Part shown: piece after piece, positions 5,516 through 61,628 of the stretch
Layout of the letters: each line of letters begins with the position of its first letter
Position numbering within the stretch: position 1 is the stretch's first letter
NCBI RefSeq assembly: GCF_003918875.1
Contig: NW_025765324.1
Location: 24,041 to 88,040 of the forward strand
DNA: 64,000 nucleotides
Direction: 5' to 3'
Source: Haliotis rubra
Taxonomy: Eukaryota
Made by a program: the position numbers and the translations under genes
The notes under the pieces: generated by a model
What the model saw: only the letters and a program-made list of their open reading frames with translations
What the model was told of the DNA's origin: nothing
Databases searched by the model: none

Positions 5516-6103
5516 TCAGTAGTAGCCGATTCCTGAAACAGAAAAAATAGTTACATATAAAATTGGGATTTATGGAAAAGTAACATGGAAATGTTGAAAC
5601 TGCTTGCACCATAAACTATACCAAGCATTTCAAACAGCTGACAACAGTTTTACAGATGTTTATCAACTGACAACAGCTTATTTGCATAAAATAGTACTAA
5701 TAAATACATGGGTACATGATATCATTTTATAAAAGTGAAGTTTAAAATGGGATAACAGAAGAAAGAATGACAGCATGTGTTGTGAAATACCTTTTCCTAG
5801 TCCGATTCCGTAGCCTGCCATTCCGTAGAGACCACCATGGCCTCCAAGTCCTCCAAGTCCTCCATACAGACCTCCCATGCCGTATCCGTATTTGCCTCCG
5901 TACAGACCGCCCATTCCTCCGTACAGACCGCCATAGCCTCCGTAAAGACCTCCCTGCATTCCACCTATTCCGTAGCCTATTCCGCCCATTCCGCCCATTC
6001 CTCCATACAACCCAGCCATTCCATATGCTCCATACAGACCGGTTGGCTCAGCAAAGGCGGTAACAGCCAGGCAGGCAACAAGGACGACGACTATTTTCAT
6101 CAT
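5516..6103 (-). CDS. Gly/Tyr/Met-rich secreted protein, copy 2. Exon 1 is 6103..5791, exon 2 is 5532..5516, about 109 aa. It has one fewer GMGG and one fewer GLGG than copy 1.
   Basis: Same structure as copy 1 at an offset of about 3360 bp. It differs from copy 1 only by in-frame 9-nt repeat-unit indels. Confidence 0.7.
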
Positions 6104-8859
6104 TTTGAGTATCTGTTCAGTAACATAAAAATCATCTTCAAGACAGGAAAACAACATGTTATCATTACTCGTCTGGAGAATTGACTTCACGCCACTCCTA
6201 ATGAATAATGTTATCATTTGTCATTTCATATGCATCCACATACTGGAAAATTTACAAGAACGGTAAATATTCCTTACTTATTCGTACTTTGATGAATTGG
6301 ATCAATGTAAAAGTTGAAAAAGGAGAGGTGTGCAGCAGAAGAACGAAAACTTCAAAGTATACATGTTTACCACAGGCAAACCTTGACCTGGTACTTACAG
6401 TTTGGTGTTAACACGTATCTGTGTCTTAACAGCAGGTGAAAATAAGAGATGATAGAATACTTTCCCCCCTCTCCTATATATATATACAATTGGTGGACTA
6501 TATGTGATTGATATACCTTGGGCTGGCCACTTCCAGGTAAGCAACACACCTTAACGTTAATGATGTAAACTGATCATTCTATTCGCCTCAAAGGTTCTGC
6601 CTGAGGTTATCACCCTAAGGCTATACATGTGTGTTGGTATAGATGAACGTTCATTTAGGAAGTAGAGGGCGGTATATAATAGGGCGAAGGTGTCTCTTCC
6701 TATCTTTCTCTTCTCTCTACGGCATGGTTTAACTGCATTTAAACAACTTCCAGTTACCCAACGTTTAACCAGTATTAAGCAAATATTAGATAGTAGTTTG
6801 GGAGCTGTGTATCCATTACACATGTAATGGAGCAATGTAAAATCAGACATTATGATATATGTGCCTGAGACGAAATTACAAAATACGGGGCAATTGAAGC
6901 AACGCGCTAGTACAGCGTCGCCACACTACAGCAGTATCACTGTGCTACAAGGGGTAACTATGCAAACATCTACGTGTAATACTGCAGCCTGTCCACACGA
7001 TGACTGCATGCTTACTATACTGCAGAAATCCCAATACCCTAATATTCTCCCCGAATGTTAACAATCTCACCACACTGAAACAAAATACTACAATAGCTTT
7101 ATTTCCCAAATGTTATATACATATACTAGTGTCTTTTCACCAAGGGCCTGTCACTATCAATTGTCACAGCACGCATTTAGCTGTAAAAAACAAAGCACCG
7201 ATGTCTTCTGAAAACAGGATTAGGTTTCCCCTATGACATACAGCATGTTCCCTGGTATTTGTCGACTTTTCTTTGCATGTGTTTCTCACTGGTGTAGCAG
7301 AGGGGTTAGGATACACTCACCTCCTTCGCGAACACTTTGTGTCATCACTATTTGATAGAAAGTCATGCACACTTTCCTAGGATATAGTCACAATCGTACA
7401 GTGGACTCTGCCTTTAGTGGATATTCCTGACAATTACATAAAGGGTTGTGTCGCTTTATTTTACACCTATTTTCTTTGAAGTAACTGTGGATTTCTTAAT
7501 GATATCGATCTTCTGATGAAACAGAATTCGCTAATCATAAAGGGAACAATTGTACTGAACACATACTGCTTATTAGCCAAGACACCAGGTGCTAGCCAAC
7601 AGTTTGTGGCTGTAAATTCGTTTTTAATGTTTCATGACCTTTCCATTCGGTCCTTCTTGTGCCAAATTAAATAGATGTTGTCTTTGGATAATGGCTCAAC
7701 AATTGCTACAATTCAATGTATATTTAATCACTGTTGCAAGTGATTCACTTCAACTTGTTTTAGGCTTCCGGAGAATGTTTGATCATAAACACCAGTAGAA
7801 AGAAGAAATAGAAAACTCGCCTCTACCCTTTACATATGGCCTTTACATCATGAAAACAGTCTTCTGTGTGTTCATAGATAATGTTACTGTTGCGTTAAAA
7901 TCAATCGTGTCCGATTTGATAAATCTGTACTTTTGATAGTGCATCCAGATAGAAATACTTCTCCTGTTAATTGCATCAGCGGTATGCAAACGGTTAGATT
8001 ACATCATGAAATCAAGAAGTAAACTTCCCATGGAGTGTACAAAATGATTGGTATTGCCATCAACTGTTATCGACTATTCATAGCATGTTCAATAGTAACT
8101 TATGATTGTAGACCTTTTCATTTTGTTTGTGTGATACATAAACCGATAGCATATGCTAATGTAATGAAATTCCAACTGCTACGCAATCCCTTCTAGTATA
8201 GGCAGTAAGAATACTACAGCATGTGTTTGTTATTTATTCTTCAAGACCATGGTATCAATATTTGTTATCACAGAAACTTAGATATTCATCATCCAAAGGA
8301 CAATGCGTGTTCCGTAAAGAACACTCGCTCAATTTCTAGGACAGGTTACATACTTGCATTCGAATCGAATACTGTGCACACTAGCTACTATTAGATGACT
8401 TACTGCACCCCAACACGGAAATATGACTCAACTCCGGATATTTTCGGATTTCACTATGACATCATCAAGACCCTTCGTGGCAGCACAAATGGTATATTCG
8501 CATGAGACATGGAACCAAGTAAGAGATAGCCTGTATGAAATATGTCAAGCCTAAAATCCCTCCTCTCATATTCAATCTGATTTCGTCAGGACATTCTAAG
8601 CATATTTCATTAGTTGACACCACTGCTGGAAGCAAAACTGATTACCAGTTAAGTGTTTGGATATCGTTGAATAACACATATATCCAGAGTTAATAATATG
8701 GAGACATATAGTAACTCGTCCATTTTGTAAACATTGAATTCAGCTTTAAGATTCTCAAACAAAGCACAAATCGTTTGTATTTCAAGTTTTATTGAACCAA
8801 TTGTATTGTCATGAGTATACAAAATAAATAGTCTTCTTCACACTGCAGGTGACAGTAAC

Positions 8860-9455
8860 TCAGTAGTAGCCGATTCCTGAAACAGAAAAATAGTTACATA
8901 TAAAATTGGGATTTATGGAAAAGTAACATGGAAATGTTGAAACTGCTTGCACCATAAACTATACCAAGCATTTCAAACAGCTGACAACAGTTTTACAGAT
9001 GTTTATCAACTGACAACAGCTTATTTGCATAAAATAGTACTAATAAATACATGGGTACATGATATCATTTTATAAAAGTGAAGTTTAAAATGGGATAACA
9101 GAAGAAAGAATGACAGCATGTGTTGTGAAATACCTTTTCCTAGTCCGATTCCGTAGCCTGCCATTCCGTAGAGACCACCAAGTCCTCCAAGTCCTCCAAG
9201 TCCTCCATACAGACCTCCCATGCCGTATCCGTATTTGCCTCCGTACAGACCGCCCATTCCTCCGTACAGACCGCCATAGCCTCCGTAAAGACCTCCCTGC
9301 ATTCCACCTATTCCGTAGCCTATTCCGCCCATTCCGCCCATTCCGCCCATTCCTCCATACAACCCAGCCATTCCATATGCTCCATACAGACCGGTTGGCT
9401 CAGCAAAGGCGGTAACAGCCAGGCAGGCAACAAGGACGACGACTATTTTCATCAT
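8860..9455 (-). CDS. Gly/Tyr/Met-rich secreted protein, copy 3. Exon 1 is 9455..9134, exon 2 is 8876..8860, about 112 aa.
   Basis: Same structure as copies 1 and 2. It lacks the HGG motif and has a different count of Leu-Gly-Gly units. Confidence 0.7.
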
Positions 9456-9989
9456 TTTGAGTATCTGTTCAGTAACATAAAAATCATCTTCAAGACAGGA
9501 AAACAACATGTTATCATTACTCGTCTGGAGAATTGACTTCACGCCACTCCTAATGAATAATGTTATCATTTGTCATTTCATATGCATCCACATACTGGAA
9601 AATTTACAAGAACGGTAAATATTCCTTACTTATTCGTACTTTGATGAATTGGATCAATGTAAAAGTTGAAAAAGGAGAGGTGTGCAGCAGAAGAACGAAA
9701 ACTTCAAAGTATACATGTTTACCACAGGCAATACCTTGACCTGGTACTTACAGTTTGGTGTTAACACGTATCTGTGTCTTAACAGCAGGTGAAAATAAGA
9801 GATGATAGAATACTTTCCCCCTCTCCTATATATATACAATTGGTGGACTATATGTGATTGATTTACCTTGGGCTGGCCACTTCCAGGTAAGCAACACACC
9901 TTAACGTTAATGATGTAAACTGATCATTCTATTCGCCTCAAAGGTTCTGCCTGAGGTTATCACCCTAAGGCTATACATGTGTGTTGGTA

Positions 9990-14727: not shown

Positions 14728-15294
14728 AGCACTCTATTATATACCGCCCTCTACTCCCGAAATGAATGTTCATGTATACCAACACACATGTCCACCCTCA
14801 GGGTGATAACCTCAGGCAGACCCGTTGAGGCGAAAACAAATGATCAGCTTACATCATTAACGTTAAGGTGTGTTGCTTACCTGGAAGTGGCCAGCCCAAG
14901 GTAAATCAATCACATATAGTCCACCAGTTGTATATAAAGGAGAGGGAAAAGGTATTCTATCATCTCTTAATCACCTGCTGTTAAGACACAGATACGCGTT
15001 AACACCAAACTGTAAGTACCGTTTCAAGGTTTGCTGTGGTAAATATGTATACCTTGAAGTTGTCGTTCTTCTGCTGCACAACTCTCCTTTATCAACTTTA
15101 CATTGGTCCAATTCATCAAAGTGCGAATAAGTAAGGCATCTGTACATTTGGAAGTATGTGGATGCACATGAAATAAAAAAATGATAACATTATTCATTAG
15201 GAGTGGCGTGAAGTCAATTCTCCAGACGAGTAATGATAACATGTTGTTTTCCTGTCTTGAAGATGATTTTTATGTTACTGAACAGATACTCAAA

Positions 15295-15866
15295 ATGATG
15301 AAGATAGTCGCCGTCCTTGTTGCCTGCCTGGCTGTTACCGCCTTTGCTGAGCCAACCGGTCTGTATGGAGCATATGGAATGGCTGGGTTGTATGGAGGAA
15401 TGGGCGGAATAGGCTACGGAATAGGTGGAATGCAGGGAGGTCTTTACGGAGGCTATGGCGGTCTGTACGGAGGAATGGGCGGTCTGTACGGAGGCAAATA
15501 CGGATACGGCATGGGAGGTCTGTATGGAGGACTTGGAGGACTTGGAGGCCATGGTGGTCTCTACGGAATGGCAGGCTACGGAATCGGACTAGGAAAAGGT
15601 ATTTCACAACACATGCTGTCATTCTTTCTTCTGTTATCCCATTTTAAACTTCACTTGTATAAAATGATATCATGTATTTATTAGTACTATTTTATGCAAA
15701 TAAGCTGTTGTCAGTTGATAAACATCTGTAAAACTGTTGTCAGCTGTTTGAAATGCTTGGTATAGTTTATGGTGCAAGCAGTTTCAACATTTCCATGTTA
15801 CTTTTCCATAAATCCCAATTTTATATGTAACTATTTTTTCTGTTTCAGGAATCGGCTACTACTGAG
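15295..15866 (+). CDS. Gly/Tyr/Met-rich secreted protein, copy 4, in the inverted unit. Exon 1 is 15295..15598, exon 2 is 15850..15866, about 106 aa (MKIVAV variant).
   Basis: ATGATG at 15295-15300. Donor g|gt at 15598/15599. Acceptor ctgtttcag at 15841-15849, then gaatcggctactactga. AATAAA at 15932-15937. A candidate 5'UTR acceptor ttactgaacag ends at 15285, 10 nt before the ATG. Confidence 0.7.
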
Positions 15867-17079
15867 TTACTGTCACCTGCAGTGTGAAGAAGACTATTTA
15901 TTTTGTATACTCATGACAATACAATTGGTTCAATAAAACTTGAAATACAAACGATTTGTGCTTTGTTTGGGAAATCTTAAAGCTGAACTGAAAATTCACA
16001 AAATGGCCAAGCCATCTAGGTTTCTTGATAGAGAAAGAGATTGGCAGTTGAGTGAATTAATTTCATTTCATCAATAAATGGACCCACACTCGGGAATACC
16101 CCACCGCCCCTCATCAATGGATGGACCCATACTCGTCAAATACGACTGACTGCTACATAAAACAACATTTACTCACAATTGTGTCATAATGACATTGAAA
16201 ATGACAAAGCCATGATCGCAAATTGGAACAATTTATTTACTTTATAATATTTCAGAAAGACTGGACAAGTTCAACAGCAGTATTCTAAAGCATCGGAGAT
16301 GGTTTATCATGATAACTAATGAAATGTTGTTTCTAAAATGTTTGACAAATGAGGAACCAACATGCAGTAGTGTGGAGGCTAATATACTGATTATATATTT
16401 ATCAAACAATTGTTGAAAAGAATAGGCCTGAGCAAGGTAAACAGTATAGGAGTTCTCTCCCTTGATCCACAACAGCCTCAGTCCTGCAAAATGAAGTAAA
16501 CAGGCCAAAAGCAACTAAAAGATTTCTAACACATGACAGGAACAAGCACTGAAATTGCATTGTGTAACACAATAATAATTAAAAGGCACTCCATGCACCA
16601 TTTAAAAATGATATTAAATATTGATGTAAGATATGAAATAAATTAATACTTTTCGTCTACCTATTTCTTCAGGCAGCAACTGACATGTTTACTGACTTAA
16701 ACACTCTATTATTATTGAATTTAGTAATATGGAACAAAACATAGAACAAAAAGCTATCAGTTAATTTGTTTAAATAACTGTTCAAATCCAAAGTAAACCT
16801 GTAGTTTCAGTTCCAACACAACACTACCACTTAAAGCCTTTCTCTGAGATAACGAATATTTCTTCATAACACCCCCAGATATATCCAATGTTTGTCTTGT
16901 TAACCTGATCAACAAATACAATGTATACACACAAACAAAATATGGCCTACCCACTCTAACCATCCAAGAAACATTTGGTAAGTCTAACATTTTTCGATAT
17001 CGATTTCGATCTGCTGTTACCTTTTCTTAAAAACTTTGACTCTTCTTTAGCACTATAGTGTGTGCAAACCCTGAGACAA

Positions 17080-17492
17080 CATCGACAACCCATCTGCAGA
17101 CAACCCATCTGCAGACAACCCATCTACCCATCTACAGACAACCCATCTGCAGTCAACACATCTGCAGACAACCCATCTGCAGACAACCCATCTACAGACA
17201 ACCCATCTGCAGTCAACACATCTACAGACCATCTGCAGACAACCCATCTACAGACAACCAACTGCAGATAACCCATCTGCAGTCAACGCATCTGCAGTCT
17301 ACCCATCTGCAGTCAACGCATCTGCAGACAACCCATCTGCAGACAACCCATCTGCAGACAACCCATCTGCAGTCAACCCATCTGCAGACAACCCATCTGC
17401 AGACAACCCATCTGCAGTTAACCCATCTGCAGACAACCCATCAGCAGTCAACCCATCTGCAGACAACCATCTGCAGACAACCCATCTACAGA
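17080..17492. repeat. Minisatellite with a 15-bp unit (cagacaacccatctg), about 27 copies.
   Basis: Visible periodicity. The ORFs 17058..17630 and 17053..17247 are artefacts of it. Confidence 0.9.
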
Positions 17493-17681: not shown

Positions 17682-18480
17682 TTATTGCCGCCTGATCCTG
17701 CGTCTCTGTCCACCATTGTAAGGCTGGTACCGACAACGGTTGAAGTCCACATGCCGAGCCATCTGTTCAAAGTTGTTGTTGCTGTAGGGATGCCACTGGA
17801 AGTTGTCCCTGGATCCAAGGTCTGTCACAAAGCTGCTGTTATCCATGATTTGGCCATACCCACAATCATTTCTCAGCTTCCTGTTGGTGTCCATTGTCTG
17901 TCTGTTTAGAGTGCCACGGTTTATGTTCATGGGGTTGATGTCCTTCAACATTCGGTTCACATCAAGGTTTAGTGGGCGACGTTGGGGCCGAACAGGCTGT
18001 TCCTGTCTGTTCAAAACCTGAGGCAATGCTCGGGAAGGAATGGTGTTACATCCAAAACGAAATATCTCCGGGTTCTTTTCCTGGTTTTTCTGGACATTGC
18101 CAGGGAGATGGAAGCCCCAGGCATCCGAGATGTGAGTCAGCAGCAGGTTGGTAATGCGCCGATGAGCTGTCATGTCCCAGTGTATGCCGTCATCGGCACG
18201 GCGGTGAAGCTGATACCGCAGGAAGTAATGCAGGTCAAGAACATCAAAGTCATTTTCAACCACAACCTTGGCTGCATAATAGTTGGCTTCCAGGATGTCC
18301 AAACGCAGAGTGGAGTTCATGAATTCAATCTCAGGGATTATGAAACCACCCCGAGCATTCTTTGAAATGGGAAGTGTAGTGTTCCAGATGACCAGAGAGT
18401 CAGCAGGCAGCACCTCCTTGAACCGCCTGAACAATGTCTTCAGGTTCTCTTTGTACTCATCGATAGCTTTCACACCATAC
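17682..18480 (-). CDS. PCED1: PCED1-like terminal exon. It encodes (R)YGVKAIDEY…LVIWNTTLPI…FDVLDLHYF…DGIHWD…LLLTHISDAWGFHLPG plus a long C-terminal tail and stop.
   Basis: Acceptor ctgtgttgcag| with a phase-2 start at 18480. It carries conserved SGNH/PC-esterase block III (VIWNT) and the DxxH catalytic motif (DGIHWD). The stop is at 17684-17682. Confidence 0.85.
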
Positions 18481-19639
18481 CTGCAACACAGAAACGTATG
18501 ATCTAACCAAACACATACATTTGCACACAATCACTGAACAGGTCACTAAGTGTGGCAGCTCTTGGTCTGTACAGGTCCCAAGCAACCAAAGCTGGACAAC
18601 GTAACAGATGAGGTAGTCGGGCAGGGTGACCTGGTTGCTTGCATGTCATCATACACCATTGGTAAAGATCTTTGCTCATGACATCAATAAATGGATTGTA
18701 TGGTTTGGACTTAAAGGGACACAGACCTTTGTATTTCTCCAAGACTGGTTGTTGCCTTTGTTGTATTTTTAATGTTGACCAGCAAATCGACCAAGGGCAG
18801 CTAATGAGACCTCTCTGGCAGCTATAGACAGCCTGGGTAAAGCTTGGGATTAGTGCCCCTTTAATTATAATAATTACAGGCTTTATGATGTCACTGGAAT
18901 ACAGCCAAGTGTAGATGCTAACACTGTTATCAAGCAAGTGATAACGATGTTAGAATATACACTGAAACAGCACATCTATTGCAAAAAAGAAGTTGTCTAT
19001 CCATGAAATTATACCAGCTTCTAAATGCCACTTAAAGAAGTTATACTGCAAAGTGTGGCATTAGATCACACACAAACCCACAAACGAACAGCTTATCATT
19101 ATCTGTGAAGGATGAGGTGGTTGAACACTTAACAAGAATATTTTAAGATTGTAGTATTCATGTTAGGATAACAATCATTTCTGGATATGACCCGATGTAT
19201 CAGTGAATTACTAGTATTTACTTGGTCAGACACTAAAAAGACCCTCACCAAATCACAGCCATTTAGTTCGGTGTGGGTGGTAAAAAACTATGCTAGTTAA
19301 AGATGAATTATACAAGTTTGTTGGTTAGTTAATGTCACACTCAGCCGCATTCCAGATATATGACAGCATTTTCTAAATAATCAGTGACAGACTTCATGAG
19401 CATCGATCTACACAGCTGACATAACAAATACATTTAATCAGCGAAGTCACCAAGTCCTGTTAACTGCCTCTTTGGACAAACAAGGGTTGATGAGAAATAT
19501 TCTAACCAAGATTACCACTGACCGCCAAATTCAGTTGCCTCTTATGACCCTTTCAACCCAAGGCTCTTCAAGGCCTAGATTCATAAGCATTATCATTATC
19601 ACACAATACTTTAAGATTGACAATCATCATCTAAGTTAC

Positions 19640-20169: not shown

Positions 20170-21720
20170 AGCTTGATTTTAGACTAAGTGCAAATCGTTT
20201 CCATGGAAATCATGAAAAAAATAAATGACAAAAATCTGCGAATAGCAAAAGGCACCACTTTGGGATCTGCCTCACATATCTGCCAAGTTTTGCTGAAAGA
20301 TATCGAGATGTTTTTGAGTTGTGCTCCGGAAACGAAGCCCACCCCTCACTTTTGGGACTAAGTCCGAATCGTTTCCATGGAAACCGAAAATAAAAATGCC
20401 AAAATCTGCAAATAGCAAAAGGCACAACTTTAGGATGTGTTTGATATATCTACCAAGTTTTGTTGAAATATATTATAACGGTTTTTGAGTTGTGCTCGAA
20501 ACGAAAAGCAATCCTTACTTTTGAGACTAAGTCCAAAAATGTTTCCATGGAAACCAAGAAAAATAAAAATGCCAAAATCTGCAAATAGCAAAAGGCACAA
20601 CTTTAGGATCTGTTTGATATATCTACCAAGTTTTGTTGAAATGTTTTGAATGGTTCTTGAGTTATGCTCCGGAAACAAAGCCCACCCCTCACTTTTGGGA
20701 TAAAGTCCGAATCGTTTCCATGGAAACCGGGAAAAATAAAAATACCAAAAATCTGTGAAGAGCAAAAGGCACCACTTAAGGTTCTGTTTGATATATCTAC
20801 CAAGTCTTGTTGAAAAATATTAAACGGTTCTTGAGTTATGCTCCGGAAACGAAACCCGGCCCTTCCTTTTGAGACTAAGTCTGAATCATTTCCATGGAAA
20901 CCAAAAAAATAATAAATCACAAATATCTGCAAATAGCAAAAGGCACCACTTCAAGATCTGCCTCACATATCTGCCAAGTTTTGCTGAAAGATATTGAGAA
21001 GTTTTCGAGAAGTGCTCCGAAACGGCTTCCACCCTCACTTTTGGGACTAAGTCCGAATCGTTTCCATGGAAACCGGAAAAAATAAAATGCCAAAATCTGC
21101 AAATAGCAAAGGCACAACTTTAGGATGTGTTTGATATATCTACCAAGTTTTGTTGAAATATATTAAACGGTTCTTGAGTTATGCTCCGAAACAAAGCAAT
21201 CCTTACTTTTGAGACTAAGTCCAAAATGTTTCCATGGAAACCGGAAAAATAAAATGCCAAAAAATCTGCAAATAGCAAAAGGCACCACTGTAAGGTTCTG
21301 TTTCATACATCTACCAAGTTTTGTTGAAAAAATATTAAACGGTTCTTGAGTTATGTCTCGAAACGAAGCCCCACCCTCACTTTTGGGACTAAGTCCGAAT
21401 CGCATTCCATGGAAACCGGAAAAACATAAATGCCAAAAAATCTGTGAATAGCAAAAGGCACCACTTTAGGATCTGTTTGATATATCTACCAAGTTTTGTT
21501 GAAAAATACTGAACAGTTCTTGAGTTATGCTCCGGAAACGAAGCCCACCCTTCTTTAAGACTAAGTCCAAAACGTTTCCATGGAAACCGAGAAAAATAAA
21601 AATGACAATAATCTGTAAATAGCAAAAGGCACCACCTTAGGTTATGTTTGACATATCTACCAATTTGGGTTGAAAAATATCGAACGGTTTTTGAGTTATG
21701 CTCCGGAAACAAAATGATTA
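20170..21720. repeat. Satellite with a ~172-bp unit (…gtttccatggaaacc…ctgcaaatagcaaaaggcac…), about 9 copies, inside a PCED1 intron.
   Basis: The motif gtttccatgg recurs at 20196, 20371, 20541, 20714, 20889, 21061, 21228, 21404 and 21574. Confidence 0.9.
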
Positions 21721-25124: not shown

Positions 25125-25995
25125 CAGGGTCTCAATGACTTTCTTTACAGTGAGTCACTCATTAGGGTTTCAGATTTGTTCTATTACAGTGAGTCACTCT
25201 AACAGGTTTCAGATTTGTTGAAATTACAGTGAGTGACATAGCAGGGTTTCTGATTTGTAGCAATACAGTAGTCTTTGTCAGACAGAGTTTGTCTACAAAC
25301 TCTATGACAGTTTCAGATTTGTTCTTTTACAGTGAGTCACTCTATAGCAGGGTTTCAGATTTGTTCTTTTACAGAGAGTCACTCTATAGCAGGGTTTCAG
25401 ATTTGTTCTTTTACAGAGAGTCACTCAACTTCAGTATTTCAGATTTGTTCTACTACAGAGAGTCACTCTATTGCAGGGTTTCAGATTTGTTCTTTTACAG
25501 AGAGTCACTCAACTTCAGTATTTCAGATTTGTTCTACTACAGAGAGCCACTCTATAGCAGGGTTTCAGATTTGTTCTTTTACAGTGAGTCACTCTATAGC
25601 AGGGTTTCAGATTTGTTCTTTTACAGAGAGTCACTCTATAGCAGGGTTTCAGATTTGTTCTTTTACAGTGAGTCACTCTATAGCAGGGTTTCAGATTTGT
25701 TCTTTTACAGAGAGTCACTCTATAGCAGGGTTTCAGATTTGTTCTTTTACAGTGAGTCACTCTATAGCAGGGTTTCAGATTTGTTCTTTTACAGAGTCAC
25801 TCACTCTACTTCAGTATTTCAGATTTGTTCTATTACAGAGAGTCACTCTATTGCAGTATTTCAGATTTGTTCTACTACAGAGAGTCACTCTATTGCAGTA
25901 TTTCAGATTTGTTCTTCAACAGTGTCCCTATCTCTATAGAAGAGTTTCAGATTTGTTCTTTTTCTGTGAGTCACTCTTCAGCAGGGTTTCACTAA
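25125..25995. repeat. Minisatellite with a 42-bp unit (agcagggtttcagatttgttcttttacagagagtcactctat), about 20 copies, inside a PCED1 intron.
   Basis: Visible periodicity. The ORFs 25229..25939, 25332..26096 and 25515..25760 are artefacts of it. Confidence 0.9.
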
Positions 25996-33256: not shown

Positions 33257-34439
33257 AAGAATTACAGTTTAGATATGTGTCACTGTTACCCACAATCAAT
33301 GACATAGGTCAGGACGTTGCCTCACATCTCTGTAGGAAGCGCAACATGCGGGGGCGGACTGCTTGACGGGGTGGTCGCATTGTCCAAGGTCACACAGCCC
33401 AGCACTCCTCCGCCTGCACGTACTCACCACCATCCTGTGTATGACTGGAATGCAGATGCTCGCTGATACAGTACAAGTTCAATTTAGATAAAAACTATCC
33501 CCGTTTCTACACGTTGTCATGGTATTAGTACAGGCGCTAACAACCCTGACCTCACGGATACAATGCGGTCAGAGGTCGATACACCAGGAGTCTGAGATCC
33601 CGATCCTTCTGCTCCAAGTCGTCCTGCGAGAGCGGTGCTGTGACACATTCCACGACTCAAAGATTACCTTTGCCCTGCTCAAACTAATGACAAAGCAACA
33701 CATACATATGGATGCGCCTTTAAACATGCTGCACACATCTACACAAAGAACTTAATTAAGCAACCCCTGTGTTTTTGCAATGGTAGGTTTTCAACACGTA
33801 CATAAAACTTCTCATGGTGACCACGATGGAAAAACATGGGGTTTTCTGACCCGTATGATCCCTTGACTCATAACAAAATCATTGGAATCCATGTTGATTT
33901 TATGATAATTGTTCATTTTAAAAACACACACTGATTTTGATACAAAACCATGTCAAGTATGGCTCTGGAATGTCTGACGCTGAATTTATGAGTGAATGTG
34001 AACATTCAAAATGTCATTTTGCGTGTCTTAAACGATTCAAGGTCAATGCCGAGTGTAACCTCAATGTGACTGTATGGCAGCCAGCACTCTCCTCTTCATA
34101 CCTCCTGTCAGCCTCCTGATCCTCAGAAGGGCCAGACTGCGCCATTCCTCGTGTAAATCAGCTTCCAACGGGCCAGGTTCTGTACACGAGGGTCCCATTG
34201 TTGCACACAACGACCAATCATATTCCAGATATGCTCAAACAGGTTAAGATCGGGATTCATTCAATTGTGCGATATGTCAGGGGGTGCTTAACTAAGTTCT
34301 TTGTATATATTATTAATTTCTTTTTAAATTCACGAAAACCGTTTTTCCCGTGAAGGTTGTGAAAATGATTCACAGGTATATACGCGATGCTTTTATACAA
34401 GGAAACACTGATTTCACAAATTTCTCTTTGAGTAACGTG

Positions 34440-37020
34440 TACACTCTGACCCACACAGCAGTAGTTGGTGTACTGTCTGACTCACACAGCGGTAGTAGGT
34501 GTACAGTCTGACCCACACAGCGGTAGTAGGTGTACAGTCTGACCCATACAGCAGTAGTTGGTGCACAGTGAGACCCATACAGCAGTAGGTGTAGTCTGAC
34601 CCACACAGCGGTAGTTGGTGTACAGTCTGACCAACACAGCGGTAGTAGGTGTACAGTCTGACCCACACAGCGGTAGTTGGTGTACAGTCTGACCCACACA
34701 GCGGTAGTAGGTGTACAGTCTGACCCACACAGCAGTAGTTGGTGTACTGTCTGACCCACACAGCGGTAGTAGGTGTACAGTCTGACCCACACAGCGGTAG
34801 TAGGTGTACAGTCTGACCTACACAGCGGTAGTAGCTGTACCGTCTGACCCACACAGCGGTAGTAGGTGTACCGTCTGACCCACACAGCGGTAGTAGGTGT
34901 ACAGTCTGACCCACACAGCGGTAGTTGGTGTACAGTCTGACCCACACAGCGGTAGTAGGTGTACAGTCTGACCCACACAGCGGTAGTTAGTGTACAGTCT
35001 GACCCACACAGCGGTAGTAGGTGTACCGTCTGACCCACACAGCGGTAGTTGGTGTACAGTCTGACCAACACAGCGGTAGTTGGTGTACCGGCTGACCCAC
35101 ACAGCGGTAGTAGGTGTACAGTCTGACCTACACAGCGGTAGTAGGTGTACAGTCTGACCCATAAGCGGTAGTTGGTGTACAGTCTGACCCATACAGCAGT
35201 AGTGGGTGTACAGTCTGACCCACACAGCGGCAGAAGGTGTACAGTATGACTCATACAGCAGTAGTTGGTGTACAGTCTGACCCATATAGCAGTGGTTGGT
35301 GTACAGTCTGACCCACACAGCGGATGTAGGTGTACAGTCTGACCCACACAGCGGTAGTAGGTGTACCGTCTGACCCACACAGTGGTAGTAGGTGTACAGT
35401 CTGAGCCACACAGCGGTAGTTGGTGTAGTCTGACCAACACAGCGGTAGTTGGTGTACAGTCTGACCCACACAGCGGTTGTTGGTGTACAGTCTGACCCAC
35501 ACAGCAGTAGTTGATGTACAGTCTGACCCACACAGCGGTAGTAGGTGTACAGTCTGACCCACACAGCGGTAGTAGGTGTACAGTCTGACCCTTACAGCGG
35601 TAGTTGGTGAGGTGTACAGTCTGACCCACACAACATGCAGCAGTTGGTGTACAGTCTGACCCACACTGCGGTAGTAGGTGTACAGTCTGACCCACACAGC
35701 GGTAGAAGCTGTACATTCTGACCCTCACAGCGGTAGTAGGTGAGGTGTACAGCCTGACCCACACAGCAGTAGGTGTAGTCTGACCCACACAGCAGTAAGA
35801 GGTGTACAGTCTGACCCACACAGCAGTAGGCGTACAGTCTGACCAACACAGCAGTAAGAGGTGTACAGTCTGACCCACACAGCATGCAGCAGTAGGTGTA
35901 CAGTCTGACCCACACAGCAGTAAGAGGTGTACAGTCTGACCCACACAGCAGTAGGTGTACAGTCTGACCCACACAGCGGTAGGTGTACAGTCTGACCCAC
36001 ACAGTATGCAGCAGTAGGTGTACAGTCTGACCCACACAGCGGTAGTAGGTGTACAGTCTGACCCACACAGCAGTAAGAGGTGTACAGTCTGACCCACACA
36101 GCGGTAGTAGGTGTAGTCTGACCCACACAGCGGTAGTTGGTGTACAGTCTGACCCACACAGCGGTAGTAGGTGTACAGTCTGACCCTCACAGCGGTAGTA
36201 GGTGTAGTCTGACCAACACAGCAGTAAGAGGTGTACAGTCTGACCCACACAGCGGTAGTAGGTGTACAGTCTGACCCATACAGTGGTAGTAGGTGTAGTC
36301 TGACCCACACAGCGGTAGTAGGTGTAGCCTGACCCACACTGCGGTAGTAGGTGTACAGTCTGACCCACACAGTGGTAGTAGGTGTACAGTCTGACCCACA
36401 CTGCGGTAGTAGGTGTACAGTCTGACCCACACAGTGGTAGTTGGTGTACAGTCTGACTCACACAGCGGTAGTAGGTGTACAGTCTGACCCACACAGTGGT
36501 AGTAGGTGTACAGTCTGACCCACACTGCGGTAGTAGGTGTAGTCTGACCCACACAGTGGTAGTAGGTGTAGTCTGACCTACACAGCGGTAGTTGGTGTAC
36601 AGTCTGACCCACACAGCTGTAGTAGCTGTACATTATGACCCTCACAGCGGTAGTAAGTGTAGTCTGACCCACACTGCGGTAGTTGGTGTACAGTCTGACC
36701 CACACAGCGGTAGTAGCTGCACATTCTGACCCACACAGTGGTAGAAGGTGTAGTCTGACCTACACAGCAGTAGGTGTAGTCTGACCCACACAGCAGGAGG
36801 TGTACAGTCTGACCCACACAGCAGTAGGTGTACAGTCTGACCCACACAGCAGTAGGAGGTGTACAGTCTGACCCACACATCAGCAGTTGGAGGTGTACAG
36901 TCTGACAAACACAGCAGTAGTTTGTGTACAGTCTGACCCATACAGCAGTAGGAGGTGTAGTCTGACCCACACAGCGGTAGTAGGTGTACAGTCTGACCCA
37001 CACAGCGGTAGTAGCTGCAC
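34440..37020. repeat. Satellite with a 31-bp unit (ctgacccacacagcggtagtaggtgtacagt), about 83 copies.
   Basis: Regular periodicity. The 686-aa and other long minus-strand ORFs exist only because the repeat lacks stop codons in most frames. 31 is not a multiple of 3. Confidence 0.95.
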
Positions 37021-37199
37021 ATTCTGACCTAGTCTCTCGTACAGACCCTGAAGCAATTATATCCAAGAAAGCCCACGCAAGTCTAGAAAATGTGGCAAGT
37101 CTAGATTTCCTCAGCTTCAGGGCTCCTTTTCATTATATTATATTTTTCTTTACTATGAACATTTTTCAGTAAATTATGTTCATTTCAGAGACTAGTTGT

Positions 37200-48060: not shown

Positions 48061-49890
48061 GTGTATAACTGCAACAGCCTATACTCATCCCCTTCTCAAC
48101 TACTACAGCTTATACCCACCCCCATCTCAAGTACAACAGCCTACATTCATCCCCATCTCAACTATTACAGCTTATACTCACCCCCATCTCAACTACAACA
48201 GCTTATACTCACCCCATCTCAACTACAACAGCTTATACTCACCCCATCTCAACTACAACAGCTTATACTCACCCCCATCTCAACTACAACAGCTTATACT
48301 CACCCCATCTCAACTACAACAGCTTATACTCATCCCCATCTCAACTACTACAACAGCTTATACTCACCCCATCTAAACTACAACACATTATACCCACCCC
48401 GTCTCAACGACAACAGCTTATACTCACCCCATCTCAACTACAACAGCTTATACTCACCCCATCTCAACTACAACAGCTTATACTCACCCCATCTCAACTA
48501 CAACAGCTTATACTCACCCCATCTCAACTACAACAGCTTATACTCACCCCCATCTCAACTACAACAGCTTATACTCACCCCATCTCAACTACAACAGCTA
48601 ATACTCACCCCATCTCAACTACAACAGCTTATACTCATAGCCCCCATCTCAACTACAACAGCTTATACTCACCCCCATCTTAACTACAACAGCTTATACT
48701 CAACCCCATCTCAACTACAACAGCTTATACTCACCCCATCTCAACTACAACAGCTAATACTAACACTTTATACACCCTATCTACTACTTCAATACTCACC
48801 CCCATCTCAACTACACAGCTTAATTATATACTCACCCCATCTCCTACTAACAGCTTGTACTCACCCCATCTCAACTACAACAGCTTATACTCACCCCATC
48901 TCAACTACAACAGCTTATACTCACCCCATCTCAACTACAACAGCTTATACTCACCCCCATCTCAACTACAACAGCTTATACTCACCCCATCTCAACTACA
49001 ACAGCTTATAATCACCCCATCTCAACTACACAGCTTAATTATACTCACCCCATCTCAACTACAACAGGTTATACTCACCACATTATACTCACATCACCCC
49101 ATCTCAACTACAACAGCTTATACTCACCCCATCTCAACTACAACAGCTTATACTCACCCCCATCTCAACTACAACAGCTTATACTCACCCCATCTCAACT
49201 ACAACAGCTTATACTCACCCCATCTCAACTACAACAGCTTATACTCACCCCCATCTCAACTACATACACCCCAGCTTATACAACAGCTTATACTCACCCC
49301 ATCTCAACTACAACAGCTTATACTCACCCCATCTCAACTACAACAGCTTATACTCACCCCATCTCAACTCTACAACAGCTTATACTCACCCCCCTCCTCA
49401 TCTCAACTACAACAGCTTATACTCACCCCATCTCAACTACAACAGCTTATACTCACCCCCATCTCAACTACAACACTCACCCCATCTCAACTACAACAGC
49501 TATACTCACCCCATCTCATCACCATCCTCAGCTACAACAGCTTATACTCACCCCATCTCAAACTACAACAGCTTATACTCACCCCATCTCAACTACAACA
49601 GCTTATACTCAACTACAACAGCTTATACTCACCCCATCTCAACTACACAGCTTATACTCACCCCATCTCAACTACAACAGCTAATACTCACCCCCATCTC
49701 AACTACAGCAGCTTATATACTCACCCCATCTCAACTACAACAGCTTATACTCACCCCCATCGCAACTACAGCAGCTTATTTACTCACCCCATCTCAACTA
49801 CAAGAGCTTATACTCACCCCATCTCAACTACACATCTTATACTCACCCCATCTCAACCACAACAGCTTATACTCACAACTGCTTAACTGC
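48061..49890. repeat. Minisatellite with a 30-bp unit (tactcaccccatctcaactacaacagctta), about 60 copies.
   Basis: Regular periodicity. 30 is a multiple of 3, so long open frames arise (316 and 343 aa, SPHLNYNSLY repeats). These are judged to be artefacts. Confidence 0.9.
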
Positions 49891-50108
49891 AGCAGCCTAT
49901 ACTCACAACCGCTTCATCTATGAATTATCTAGTTTAAATACATAGCGTTAGGTTAGTGTATCGCCGTTTCGTTATTTCATATCTTTATTCCCGTTATATT
50001 AGTGAAGGTCGACCACTCCTCCACCCGCTTTGTCTTGTTTGTTGAAAACATTCTATCTCACAAAGCTTTGCTTCTACCGCTTCCTTTGTCCGTTTTCAGA
50101 TTGTGAGA

Positions 50109-50822
50109 ATGCAGCGCTTATATTCTGTCGACATCCGGGTCAGTGAGTTAGAGCGCATGCGCGTAATATGGAGCGTAAACATTGGAACAGGAAGGACTAC
50201 TTTCGCCTCTGACAACGACGACATAGATGGTGGTTCTGTGTTGTTGTATTACCTCGGCACCATCTACATCAGTCTTTCGGGGGTTGATGGTGACGCAGTG
50301 TCGACGTTGCTAGCCGTTAGAGAAGACGGCTCGAAGGGAACCGTAGTGTATACAACCAGTTATCCCCCGTCAGATTTCGCTATTTACGATGACGTCACGT
50401 TTTGTCATGACGGCACTGTTCAGATGCCCGTAGTCTGGGTTGCTCAGCAACGGGGTTCTGTTATTTCAGCTCTTGACTCTAAAACTAAAGTAATGTTTAT
50501 GAACATTACTTTAAATACCTTACTGAATGTGAAGCACGTCAGGTTATCCTCAAAACTAATGGTACATAAAGATACTGCTGATAGGTTTGTACTCATGTTC
50601 GCATTGAGCGTTGCAAACACCACTGCCGAAAGGTACTCTCAACACCTCGTGACGCTGCAAGGTGTTCTGTCTTCTAAGAAAGCGCCTACCGTGATGTGGA
50701 GTACTCCCTTACCCGATTCGTTTCAGGTTAGAGGCCAAATCAGTCTTGTTAGCGGATCCTATGAGACATTCGTCGCAACTGCTAGGAATATGACCGGTGT
50801 GTATGCTTTTGGCGTCCATTAA
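50109..50822 (+). CDS. Unknown-function protein A (237 aa from the ATG): MQRLYSVDIRVSELERMRVIW…MWSTPLPDSFQVRGQISLVSGSYETFVATARNMTGVYAFGVH*.
   Basis: The ATG is at 50109; the track ORF starts at GTG 50103. A strong acceptor-like tract ccgttttcag ends at 50100, so this may be the last large exon of a spliced gene. It is a paralog of the adjacent ORF B, sharing N- and C-terminal blocks. Confidence 0.4.
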   Translation: MQRLYSVDIRVSELERMRVIWSVNIGTGRTTFASDNDDIDGGSVLLYYLGTIYISLSGVDGDAVSTLLAVREDGSKGTVVYTTSYPPSDFAIYDDVTFCHDGTVQMPVVWVAQQRGSVISALDSKTKVMFMNITLNTLLNVKHVRLSSKLMVHKDTADRFVLMFALSVANTTAERYSQHLVTLQGVLSSKKAPTVMWSTPLPDSFQVRGQISLVSGSYETFVATARNMTGVYAFGVH

Positions 50823-51578
50823 ATGTCGATTGAATAAAATTTAAAATGATTAGTTTTGCCATATTACGAGTGATTCATTAGTGTTTTCCCCTAAATAAAA
50901 CATGTTTTCAATAGAAGCGGTCATGTTTTCATTCAAATGTTGATTGCGAATGTATGTTATCTGTCGTAAAAGCGTTGATCTTATTTGACTGCTTCCTACT
51001 GTGACCTACATTCAGCAACATCTCAGCTTTCCCTTCCCTTCTCACAGCATTCACTGTACCTACAGATGAGCTTGTCCTTCTACTCCACAACCCCTCACAC
51101 GCTGTACAACTGACCTGTCCCTCCCTACCCCACCCCTTGTCATGCAACACCCACTGTACTTACAGCTTACCTGTCTCTCCCCACCCTATCTCTGAAGTAC
51201 CCCTTCATCTGCCATCGTCTCTGTCCTGTGACATGCGCACCTGCTGTCACTGTGACGTATTTGAACAATCCACAATAAAGCCTTTGCTGGCAGATTTTGT
51301 ACTGCAGAATACTGAGAGACCGATATTGTCTGACCTCACTGCAGGGTACCGGGCGGGCGCTGACAGCCGTATTCATCCCTGTCCTAGTAGCACAACATCA
51401 CCCCAACTCTGTAGTTGAGCATTTCCCTTCGATTGTTTGTATAGAGAGACTTTACTGAGCCTATCGGCTATCCTTGCATCGCAAAGGCAAGGTAAAACAC
51501 TGGCTTTTAATGAATGACATATTGTATCACTGATTATATCAGGTTCTTCCATATTTTCCACAGTTGGGCACTCTAGCT

Positions 51579-52967
51579 ATGCAACGTCTGTACGCCATGG
51601 ACATCTTGGATCGCATGGTGAAGCCTATCGATATCGTCTGGTACTTGAACCTGGAACTAGAGGTCAAGGTCAACTACCGGGAACCAGTGAAATCCAAGAA
51701 ATCGCCCCAGTATGAACCGAAACAAACCAGTAAGGACATAGATGGTAGTAAACAGAGGCCAATAGCCAGGATCTCGCGTGAAGCAGTACACCCGAGGAAC
51801 CCGGACAAAATGAATCAGTCTCGTCTATCCAGAAACAAACATGCCACACTAGAGCACGACACGAGATTAAAGTATAAGACGGCTGATCGGGCAGAACGTA
51901 ACTCCTTCGTGCTAGACATGCTAAAACGATCTATAGCAAAGGGTGGCAAAAGCTTTAGGGAACCTACCAACAGTTTGCGTAATCCAGCACATCGACATGA
52001 CGTGTCTTCCGACGTACTTGAAATGGTTCAGCACGAGTCTATACAATTCATCGGTACAGGAAACACAAACAAGTATCAAAACTCTGGTACTTCCCGTACA
52101 GGAAACACAAAGTCTGGTACTTCCGGTACGGGCGGTTACCAAAAGGACCGCCATCCCCCCAGCAACATTCGCCACCAATGGTCTCAGCAGACAAGTGAAC
52201 AGTCAAGTTTGAGCTACTTCTTTGGAACAGTGATGGCCAGCGTGGCTCCCCCTATCGGGATCTGTGACATGCTGACATTGGAGGAACATCGTCAGAGTTG
52301 CCTGGAAAGCTCATTTTCCAGACTGGTAGGCATTCAAGATCTAGGAACCAACATGAGTCTGTTATACAGCAACAACTTCTCTCTATCTCACATGTCAGTC
52401 TATGACTCATCGTACGGCAGAATGGGGCTGCACTCGTCCTGGAACACTTCTATTAAGCAAGAAGACGCGGATCCCAAACACGACAAAACACAAGCTACGC
52501 ACACACAGCAACGGACCAGGCTTGGCGAGGGAAGTCTGGTGTGGGCTGTCACTCAGTTTGGGGACACCATTAACGGATTCGATCAAATCTCAAGCCAGGT
52601 CCAACAAATCGCTAACGTTTCCCAAATGCTGAACACCACAGTACAAGTGACGTCAAGGGTGATGGTAGCCTTAGATCCAAAAACGCACGCTGACCTCCTT
52701 CTGTTCGCCGTAAGACGGGTGAATAAAACTGAGCCCCACTCTTCATTCAATGCCACGAATTACCTAGTTGCCTTGGATACATCCTTTGGTGACGGAGAGG
52801 CAAACATTATGTGGACATTTCCAGTTCCCTATGATTATGAAGTTCAAGGTCAGATTGCCGTGTTGGAAGTTCCATGGGTGAATAGTACCTCACCGCTTTT
52901 AGTCGCAACAGCCCAGGGCCCAGTCAGCCAGATAGCATTCGCATTTAACTTCACCCAGACTCTGTGA
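51579..52967 (+). CDS. Unknown-function protein B (462 aa from the ATG): MQRLYAMDILDRMVKPIDIVW… a long S/T/N/K-rich low-complexity middle …MWTFPVPYDYEVQGQIAVLEVPW…AFNFTQTL*.
   Basis: The ATG is at 51579; the track ORF starts at TTG 51564. The acceptor-like tract tattttccacag ends at 51563. It shares blocks with ORF A (MQRLY.(V/M)DI; MW(S/T).P(L/V)P…(V/E)(R/Q)GQI). Codon usage is GC-richer than the surrounding DNA. Confidence 0.4.
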   Translation: MQRLYAMDILDRMVKPIDIVWYLNLELEVKVNYREPVKSKKSPQYEPKQTSKDIDGSKQRPIARISREAVHPRNPDKMNQSRLSRNKHATLEHDTRLKYKTADRAERNSFVLDMLKRSIAKGGKSFREPTNSLRNPAHRHDVSSDVLEMVQHESIQFIGTGNTNKYQNSGTSRTGNTKSGTSGTGGYQKDRHPPSNIRHQWSQQTSEQSSLSYFFGTVMASVAPPIGICDMLTLEEHRQSCLESSFSRLVGIQDLGTNMSLLYSNNFSLSHMSVYDSSYGRMGLHSSWNTSIKQEDADPKHDKTQATHTQQRTRLGEGSLVWAVTQFGDTINGFDQISSQVQQIANVSQMLNTTVQVTSRVMVALDPKTHADLLLFAVRRVNKTEPHSSFNATNYLVALDTSFGDGEANIMWTFPVPYDYEVQGQIAVLEVPWVNSTSPLLVATAQGPVSQIAFAFNFTQTL

Positions 52968-53529
52968 ATAAACCATTCCAATCTGATATAACGATCCGCC
53001 CAAGACCAATTTCTTGAAGGTTATGGCACCATTTGATGCTTTCGTCTAATTTATGATGAATGTCTCCCACTCGCTTCTTGATTGATACATCCGGTGAAAT
53101 CTCACAGCAAACTGTGAACAAATAGTTTTTATAGAAAAAAATATCTTGGGAGACGTTTTCAAGAATTGTATGCTCTCTCATCATTTGGAGAAGATACCCC
53201 CAGATTATCTTGTTCCCAAACTTACTTTGTTCAGTATAGGTAAAATCAATTTAACGTAATGATACTGTATTATAAGTATATATTTTCTGGTACGATTAGA
53301 AAGGATACTGCGATAAGTTGACGGTGCCAAATGAAGTGTGGAGCCGTGGTGTCGATAAAAGAATATTTGTGATTTCCATTAACTTTTGTACATGTGTAAT
53401 CATTGATACATTGATTTCTTTCCCTAATAAACTACATGTGTTGTCACAAAGGACCGATTGGAGCATTCGTGTTTTCATGAACGGATGGTCAAGTTAAACA
53501 GTTCAGTTAATTTGGATGAGCGTTTCAGA

Positions 53530-60560: not shown

Positions 60561-61628
60561 CTATGTACGCCGCTTTTTACCTGTGGCCATGCGCGTTGTG
60601 CGGAGAGGAGAGGGGCTGGTTCGAAACTCGGAGTCGTTGTTGAAGGGGCAGTATTTGATGGTGTGGGCGTGGTCCCCGATGGCTTGGCAAATTGGACACG
60701 GGTACTTCCGCAACACTGGGCACGCCGTATAGCCACGAGAATCCTTCAAAACATGCCCGGTGTACACATGTGGTGGTTCCTTGTTGTTCTTGCAAAATAC
60801 ACAGATCAACTTGGATTTTTTCTTCCCCTGCACCTGTAGTTGTGTAACATCGCCACGGGCGGTCTTGCACTGTTTCAGCCACAGGTATTCCTTGATCCGA
60901 TCATTTGGAACGACCGGGATCTCCCGGGTGGGGGGTTCGTGTCCGCGCACTTTCTGCTGTATGATGTCATACTCGTCCAATTCGTATGTAGTTCCGTTCC
61001 TTTCGAATTCCGCAGTTGTTAAAGCACGAAGTCTTTCCTGGTCTAACTTGCTGAAATTCGAATTCACAAGCGGTGGATTTGAAGCTTGGAAAGTTACATA
61101 CTTGAAGCTGTCGCTACTTTCATCCGATGACAGGGAAATATCGGAACTGGGGCTCAGCTCGCCCCGGCCCCCGGCGAACTCCTGACACAATCCAAAGTAG
61201 TCCTGGTAGGGGTCGTAGATGTGGTCGTTGCCCAGACATAACACGTCGCTAAACGCGGAGTCATTCCTACCTGTGAAGTCTTCTTTGGTAGATAAGATTT
61301 TCTTCTTGGCGAGCTGTGGCGTGAATTTGGGGATCTGAGGGAGAAGTAAGCTTTGACTGTATGGAACTTCATCCCCAGCCAGTAGTTCGAAGTCGTCAGT
61401 TGTACGACAATCCCCGGAGTCAGGTTCAAGCACAGGGTGTAGTAGCATTGTGAAATCAGCCACAGGTCGCCTCCGAGTTGAAGATGGTAGCCTCGGTCTA
61501 TGGTGCGCCGCCTTGGATGATACAAATTGGCAGCACTGACGACTCTCGCACCCGGCGCGTGTGACAGTGCACGAAGTCCACGTGCGTTTTATAACTTGCC
61601 ATACGTCCAGGCCGCCAACGACTTTCAT
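60561..61628 (-). CDS. nanos: Nanos-family RNA-binding zinc-finger protein (355-aa ORF, intronless).
   Basis: The C-terminal [53 protein letters not shown] matches the zf-nanos pattern C-x2-C-x12-H-x10-C-x7-C-x2-C-x7-H-x4-C exactly. The real ATG is at 61628. The true start could instead be the internal Met at aa 61 (MLLHPV…). Confidence 0.9.

Follow-up and report, generated by a model that had tools for sequence, protein, structure and literature searches.

We analyzed a stretch of 64,000 nucleotides from the abalone Haliotis rubra (NCBI RefSeq assembly GCF_003918875.1, contig NW_025765324.1, positions 24,041 to 88,040 of the forward strand), referred to here as the window and numbered from its first letter. 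The subject of this work is LOC124268518, a single gene on the + strand that runs from 39013 to ~53000, and two open reading frames (ORFs) that lie in tandem toward its 3' end. The frame of the first (ORF1, + strand) is open from 50100, with an ATG at 50109 and a stop codon at 50820-50822. That of the second (ORF2, + strand) is open from 51564, with an ATG at 51579 and a stop codon at 52965-52967. Features of the gene are listed in Table 1.

The two ORFs are paralogous and directly downstream from splice acceptors

In a multiple alignment, ORF1 and ORF2 remain collinear over the whole length of ORF1. BLASTP aligned the two products with a score of 45.8 bits (E 3e-10; 23% identity spanning nearly all of ORF1), and the N-terminal MQRLY block was found as a separate match. 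A hidden Markov model (HMM) of the C-terminal domain, with 271 positions, covers positions 2-267 in ORF1 and 1-271 in ORF2. The N-terminal motif is MQRLYSVDI in ORF1 and MQRLYAMDI in ORF2, and the C-terminal motif is MWSTPLPDSFQVRGQI and MWTFPVPYDYEVQGQI, respectively. These blocks have family-wide forms, an RLYAxD strand and the blade-8 motif LW..P.P....GQI, in the protein family described below. Relative to ORF1, ORF2 has an insertion of ~185 amino acids after the first strand pair, another of ~45 amino acids, and small ones.

Each ORF begins at a recognizable acceptor. The sequence in front of ORF1 is ...ccgcttcctttgtccgttttcag|ATT (82% pyrimidine at -25 to -4) and that in front of ORF2 is ...ttccatattttccacag|TTG (73% pyrimidine at -25 to -4). 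ORF1 and ORF2 have G+C contents of 0.463 and 0.484, respectively, compared with 0.417 for the whole window and 0.35-0.39 for the immediate flanks, an enrichment that is real and modest. An earlier description of this locus, made from the letters of the window alone (the original prediction), had listed two adjacent plus-strand ORFs that are paralogous, share N- and C-terminal blocks, are richer in G+C than their surroundings, and directly follow polypyrimidine-AG tracts; all of these statements agree with our measurements.

At 42% G+C, ~6% of codons should be stop codons (an estimate from base composition), and chance alone would not be expected to leave frames of 240 and 467 codons open. We rejected the possibility that these are chance ORFs based on their length, their homology, and the ratio of non-synonymous to synonymous substitution rates (dN/dS; see below).

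ORF2 is the annotated last exon of LOC124268518

A protein search found that ORF2 matches XP_046559461.1, the uncharacterized protein LOC124268518 isoform X2 of H. rubra, with 100% identity and 100% coverage. Joining exons 1-4 to 51564-52967 gave a protein identical to isoform X1 (XP_046559460.1) across all 693 amino acids. Based on these matches, ORF2 is the already annotated last exon of both RefSeq isoforms. Each of the upstream coding exons was placed only once in the window by tblastn, and their splice sites were read directly from the sequence.

The two isoforms differ solely in the donor used at the end of exon 1. The donors are 4 nt apart (39263-39267), with GTGGGT following 39263 and GTAACA following 39267. 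Use of the X2 donor shifts the reading frame, and X2 starts at a downstream ATG and has no signal peptide; it is possible that X2 is a minor splice form or a non-productive one.

The orthologue in Haliotis asinina, XP_067656856.1, is 712 amino acids long and has a signal peptide. Its locus is syntenic with that of H. rubra, including the downstream nanos gene. ORF1 is part of neither the LOC124268518 models nor the H. asinina model. A literature search with the gene symbol and the protein accessions found no publication.

ORF1 is conserved within the last intron

ORF1 is located within the last intron of LOC124268518, 2994 bp past the donor of exon 4, and its stop codon is 741 bp before the acceptor of ORF2. 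A search of protein databases did not find it among the annotated proteins of H. rubra or H. asinina; the sole match (81% identity) was to an ORF predicted on a genomic contig of 1.4 kb from run DRR299178, which we took only as a third, more distant Haliotis-like genome. Word-indexed homology searches with the ORFs, and with a composite of exons 1-4 and ORF1, returned Haliotis sequences only.

The orthologue of ORF1 in H. asinina is intact between exon 4 and the ORF2 exon (L002:18952-19674; 84% amino acid identity). The original prediction had proposed synteny in related species as a check, and this orthologue is at the syntenic position. The frame is intact in all three Haliotis genomes, and every insertion or deletion among them is a multiple of three. 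By the Nei-Gojobori method, dN/dS for ORF1 was 0.16-0.29, with dS of 0.28-0.64, in comparisons of the three genomes. Between H. rubra and DRR299178, for example, there were 42.8 non-synonymous differences in 551 sites and 63.2 synonymous differences in 169 sites. For ORF2, dN/dS was ~0.12 in the folded part and ~0.6 in the insertion. Both terminal exons are under purifying selection.

Outside ORF1, nucleotide conservation falls in both directions; the exception is a stretch of ~60 nt that runs up to and includes the acceptor. The acceptor itself, ccgttttcag|AT(T/A)GTGAGAATG, is kept in the three species. ORF1 and ORF2 are both phase 0 and start at an equivalent place in the structure, the RLYAxD strand of blade 4, and the exon-4 donor at 47105 can join either one. 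ORF1 has no signal peptide of its own and keeps three N-glycosylation sequons in all three species, a combination that fits a product entering the secretory pathway by means of exon 1.

The gene product is a predicted eight-bladed beta-propeller

Models of the protein indicate that LOC124268518 encodes a secreted, N-glycosylated, eight-bladed beta-propeller of the pyrroloquinoline quinone (PQQ)-like type. The original prediction had recognized no known domain, and this was borne out in searches with single sequences: Pfam gave no match for ORF1 or ORF2 alone, even at an E-value of 10, and phmmer with ORF1 found no match in the PDB. Full-length X1 was also below the threshold for Pfam PQQ_2 (19.3 bits compared with a cut-off of 27.6). 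The statement did not hold once the family was considered. A profile of 66 family members matched solved PQQ-like propellers (the designed protein Cake9, E 3e-15; Scone and a PQQ_3 protein, from E 1e-14 to E 6e-12; 3hxj, E 3e-6), and 8 of the 66 members matched PQQ_2 at E-values up to 0.01 (best E 1e-14).

AlphaFold2, supplied with the 66-sequence family alignment, produced a model of X1 with a predicted local distance difference test score (pLDDT) of 75.6, a predicted template modeling score of 0.74, and 354 residues at a pLDDT of at least 90. (A model from a 5-sequence alignment had a pLDDT of 28 and was discarded.) The model has 32 beta strands in eight four-stranded blades, and confidence is low only at residues 280-335, 352-434, and 515-547. 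When the model was compared to the PDB with Foldseek, the top matches were BamB, quinoprotein alcohol dehydrogenases, tetrathionate hydrolase, and YxaL (E 4e-9 to 1e-5; 8-10% identity). Foldseek gave a probability of 1.0, with a template modeling score of ~0.7 normalized to BamB.

The junction between exon 4 and the terminal exon (residues 226/227) falls within blade 4 of the model, just before the strand MQRLYAMD (residues 233-240), in a region with a pLDDT of 84-97. The signal peptide, a small motif rich in Cys, and ~3.5 blades come from exons 1-4. By strand count in the model, the terminal exon contributes two strands of blade 4 plus blades 5-8, or ~4.5 blades. Because ORF1 matches the C-terminal-domain HMM almost from end to end, it appears to encode a complete alternative version of this part of the propeller (the end of blade 4 and blades 5-8).

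The large insertion in ORF2, between blades 4 and 5 of the model, evolves rapidly (dN/dS of ~0.6, as noted above) and varies in length between species. The region rich in S, T, N, and G that had been pointed out in ORF2 is at ~52053-52140, within this larger insertion. That region is a coding 30-bp (10-amino acid) tandem repeat, with ~2 copies in H. rubra (~52053-52140) and 3.6 copies in H. asinina (L002:21424-21532).

The protein family is widespread, and the terminal exon is duplicated in some gastropods

The two ORFs had been considered candidates for a lineage-specific family, a view that is contradicted by the range of their relatives, which spans Holozoa. When the H. asinina protein was used as the query of an exhaustive phmmer search, 148 cluster representatives had E-values up to 1e-3, and 24 of these had E-values up to 1e-30; distant relatives surfaced only in this exhaustive HMMER search. 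Named members are from gastropods (Gigantopelta, Patella, Lottia, Littorina), bivalves (Saccostrea, Ylistrum, Mactra), the annelid Owenia, the brachiopod Lingula, Branchiostoma, the sponge Corticium, and the choanoflagellates Monosiga and Barroeca. Full-length members mostly have 460-610 amino acids, and every named member is labeled uncharacterized or hypothetical. One match, to the receptor tyrosine phosphatase P0069, was attributed to low complexity and regarded as an artifact.

A single large terminal exon that starts just before RLYAxD, at the same intron position, is present in Gigantopelta, the bivalve assembly GCA_016746295.1, Saccostrea, Ylistrum, and Branchiostoma, and in each of these there is one copy within 10 kb. 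Two copies are present in H. rubra, H. asinina, and the limpets Patella vulgata and Lottia gigantea. The limpet genes are like the Haliotis gene in having the same phase-0 junction before the RLYAxD strand and two tandem paralogous terminal exons. In P. vulgata LOC126815720, the two exons (L006:17084-18040 and 18838-19614) both follow phase-0 acceptors, and there are two annotated products with the same start, of 534 and 475 amino acids, the shorter one being accounted for by 217 N-terminal residues plus 258 residues from the distal copy. At the LOTGIDRAFT_231717 locus of L. gigantea, the exons are L011:15741-16625 and 16680-17411, and the second is unannotated and begins 55 bp past the end of the annotated exon. 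Each of the Patella copies is used by one annotated product, in contrast to Haliotis, in which ORF1 is used by none. At the level of annotation, Patella provides a direct precedent: a homologous gene whose duplicated terminal exons are used as alternatives.

The duplication of the terminal exon predates at least the divergence of the three Haliotis genomes. In neighbor-joining trees of the C-terminal domain, bootstrap support was 100% for the ORF1 group, 100% for ORF2, 90% for limpet copy A, and 100% for limpet copy B. Support was weak for joining the copies within either lineage (10.5% for ORF1 with ORF2; 14% for limpet A with B), and neither pair was monophyletic in the tree. We did not rely on the other affinities in these trees (ORF1 with Gigantopelta, 38-42%; ORF2 with the bivalve sequence P0039, 31%; ORF2 with the limpet A exons, 15%).

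Repeats and neighboring genes

Much of the last intron of LOC124268518 is taken up by a 30-bp minisatellite that ends ~190 bp before the acceptor of ORF1. Its unit is also present at this place in H. asinina (9.6 copies; L002:18564-18851) and at one edge of the contig from DRR299178 (L001:1-60). A 31-bp minisatellite (34437-38406; 129 copies; G+C of ~0.53) is directly upstream of exon 1, and its unit is at the same position in H. asinina (L002:9233-9492) in only 8.4 copies. Further minisatellites, with units of 15, 174, and 42 bp, are at 17084-17492, 20177-21710, and 25310-25991.

Downstream from the propeller gene is a nanos-type gene (60561-61628, - strand; Pfam zf-nanos, E 1e-22). The counterparts of the propeller gene in H. 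asinina and the scallop Ylistrum balloti likewise have a nanos gene next to them, an indication that this microsynteny is conserved across molluscs. Elsewhere in the window, four near-identical ORFs (2318-2875, 5678-6217, and 9021-9569 on the - strand and 15181-15684 on the + strand) form a tandem array with one inverted copy. Their products have a signal peptide and are rich in Gly, Tyr, and Met (MKIVVVLVACLAVTAFAEPTGLYGAYGMAGLYGGMGG...); they have no match in Pfam and resemble glycine-rich proteins of the structural or matrix type. A 282-amino acid ORF at 17682-18530 (- strand) also had no match in Pfam.

Table 1. Features of LOC124268518 and its last intron, in window coordinates.
Feature	Position	Strand	Description and basis
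Exon 1	39013..39263	+	Start codon, signal peptide MFLLWVAVVTACTCVQFVVSQ, Cys motif GCPSYGCTPTGSFS; donor GTGGGT after 39263; tblastn of P0003/P0002, splice sites
Exon 2	43013..43210	+	Propeller blades (predicted), YGYVGIDADTGRVLW...; tblastn, splice sites, match to X1
Exon 3	44322..44392	+	tblastn, splice sites, match to X1
Exon 4	46948..47105	+	Ends ...IPQEK|gtaggg, phase 0; donor common to both terminal exons; splice sites, match to X1
30-bp minisatellite	48067..49906	+	Unit AACTACAACAGCTTATACTCACCCCATCTC, ~60 copies; strongly C-rich on the sense strand, GC skew -0.76; in last intron; Tandem Repeats Finder
ORF1 polypyrimidine tract and AG acceptor	50060..50099	+	Nearly identical across three Haliotis genomes
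Proximal terminal exon (ORF1)	50100..50822	+	240 codons and a stop codon, phase 0; counterpart, over its full length, of the C-terminal domain of ORF2 (alignment, HMM)
ORF1 poly(A) signals	50833..50899	+	Two AATAAA (50833, 50894) just past the stop codon; at least one kept in each of three species
Distal terminal exon (ORF2)	51564..52967	+	467 codons plus stop, phase 0; annotated last exon of X1 and X2
Large insertion, ~185 amino acids	51654..52205	+	Blades 4/5 (X1 residues 257-440); mostly predicted disordered (pLDDT <50 at 280-335, 352-434); S/T/N/G 10-amino acid repeats
Second, shorter loop insertion	52401..52535	+	Predicted blade 6 (X1 residues ~506-550); pLDDT <50 at 515-524, 536-547
ORF2 poly(A) signal	52967..52972	+	AATAAA overlapping the ORF2 stop codon, TGAATAAA

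ORF1 is probably an alternative last exon

Based on these results, we believe that ORF1 and ORF2 are duplicated terminal exons of one gene, and that ORF1 is an alternative last exon (a probability of roughly 0.7). Two homologous exons are in tandem downstream from a single set of upstream exons. There is one N-terminal half for two C-terminal halves, which argues for alternative terminal exons of one gene and not for two genes.

Splicing of exon 4 to the distal exon, ORF2, yields the annotated 693-amino acid isoform with its ~185-amino acid, mostly disordered insertion. If the exon-4 donor at 47105 were instead joined to ORF1, with polyadenylation at ~50850-50920, the product would be a compact isoform of 466 amino acids, a length that is typical for the family. 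Which of the two is made would depend on how the proximal 3' splice site, together with its poly(A) site, competes with the distal acceptor. The swap would exchange over half of the propeller surface and leave the N-terminal blades in place. The two forms would thus have blades 1-3.5 in common and differ at ~75% of the remaining positions, and they might present two alternative binding surfaces.

Several observations weigh against this interpretation. No protein joining ORF1 to the upstream exons was found in any Haliotis annotation or assembly in a database of 5.8 billion clusters, including with the composite query of exons 1-4 plus ORF1. Both RefSeq isoforms splice to ORF2 and neither contains ORF1. 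All three species retain the ATG at 50109, and an independent start is compatible with the sequence. Furthermore, that an isoform with ORF1 would close the propeller is suggested by the alignment to ORF2 and by the family HMM, and any function is proposed from the predicted fold alone.

ORF1 could be an unused relic of the exon duplication, a pseudo-exon that is never spliced in and that survives by chance or because it arose recently. In favor of a relic, ORF1 is unannotated in H. rubra and H. asinina, even though both isoform models exist, and the database search yielded no joined protein. However, the frame has stayed open in three species at dS as high as 0.64, with dN/dS of 0.16-0.29 and in-frame insertions and deletions only, and the acceptor, sequons, and poly(A) signals are all conserved. 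The ~25% identity between ORF1 and ORF2 indicates that the duplication is old and not recent. We therefore consider a relic unlikely.

Alternatively, ORF1 could be an independent gene nested in the last intron, with a promoter there and its own start at 50109, that encodes a 237-amino acid protein. The conservation of this ATG in three species, the partial conservation of ~100 bp upstream of ORF1, and the presence of its own poly(A) signals are all compatible with a nested gene. However, the product would have no signal peptide yet would carry three conserved N-glycosylation sequons, and it would be an incomplete propeller of ~4.5 blades. In every homologue examined, the domain is encoded in one exon that is joined at the same position to N-terminal exons. 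The equivalent M of ORF2 is replaced by L in H. asinina, indicating that the M belongs to the interior of the motif, and the conserved upstream stretch is a pyrimidine tract that ends in AG. We regard a nested gene as quite improbable.

The original prediction had proposed two tandem paralogous genes of a lineage-specific family, each with its own upstream exons, and although each ORF encodes a full C-terminal domain with its own stop codon and poly(A) signal, this proposal is very hard to sustain: no coding sequence for an N-terminal domain is present in the 741 bp between the ORF1 stop codon and the ORF2 acceptor, exons 1-4 are present once in the window, exon 4 is spliced past ORF1 to ORF2 in the annotated transcript, the family spans Holozoa, and for ORF2 the exact match to RefSeq already refutes it. 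What remains of that proposal is that the ORFs are paralogous, that each is a terminal, stop-containing exon at an acceptor, and that ORF2 has a long insertion; the single set of upstream exons does not allow for two separate genes.

Comparison to known systems

The fold and the type of repeat predicted for the abalone protein match those of PQQ-like propellers, including BamB, quinoprotein alcohol dehydrogenases, tetrathionate hydrolase, YxaL, 3hxj from M. maripaludis, and the designed proteins Cake and Scone. The abalone protein differs from these in that it appears to be a glycoprotein secreted by a eukaryote, and it has a GCPxYGC motif near its N terminus and large insertions predicted to be disordered. 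Its likeness to the quinoprotein (PQQ-dependent) dehydrogenases is one of predicted fold, with an identity of only 7-9%. The likeness to BamB also appears to be limited to the fold: the abalone protein has neither the bacterial lipoprotein signal nor the lipobox cysteine of BamB and is encoded by an animal gene with introns, with a eukaryotic-type signal peptide followed by QPVSGCPSYGC. By analogy with BamB and YxaL, which are non-catalytic PQQ-like propellers, we suggest, with low confidence, that the abalone protein might have an extracellular role in binding or as a scaffold.

Mutually exclusive exons and sets of alternative 3'-terminal exons, such as those of Drosophila lola and mod(mdg4), are tandem homologous exons that are used one at a time. 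By analogy, the abalone exons are in tandem and in the same phase and would vary one part of a protein. They differ from those sets in that they are terminal exons, each paired with a poly(A) site, and in that each would encode over half of one closed domain, as opposed to a short segment or a domain that folds by itself.

Implications

That ORF2 is an exon of LOC124268518 was already known from its annotation. What is new is its conserved duplicate, ORF1, which is unannotated. This kind of finding is familiar and by itself opens no major question. The immediate gain is in annotation: a conserved coding exon, and probably with it a second isoform of 466 amino acids, is missing from the models of H. 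rubra and H. asinina.

It is also possible, though we hold the idea only tentatively and would sooner expect it to be wrong, that the doubled terminal exon is an old and maintained device of gastropods, found in Vetigastropoda (Haliotis) and Patellogastropoda (Patella, Lottia), by which one gene secretes two eight-bladed propellers that have blades 1-3.5 in common and different blades 4.5-8. The device might go back to a single ancient duplication. If this were true, then splicing would exchange over half of one closed domain, in a family that spans Holozoa and has no studied member.

The locus may exemplify how a closed repeat domain can be diversified by duplication of an exon that encodes half of the domain. 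More broadly, ORFs that had the appearance of orphans belong to a widespread and unnamed family of predicted secreted PQQ-like propellers, found in animals and choanoflagellates. If both forms of the abalone protein are expressed, then a comparison of the two would be a practical start for studying the function of this family.

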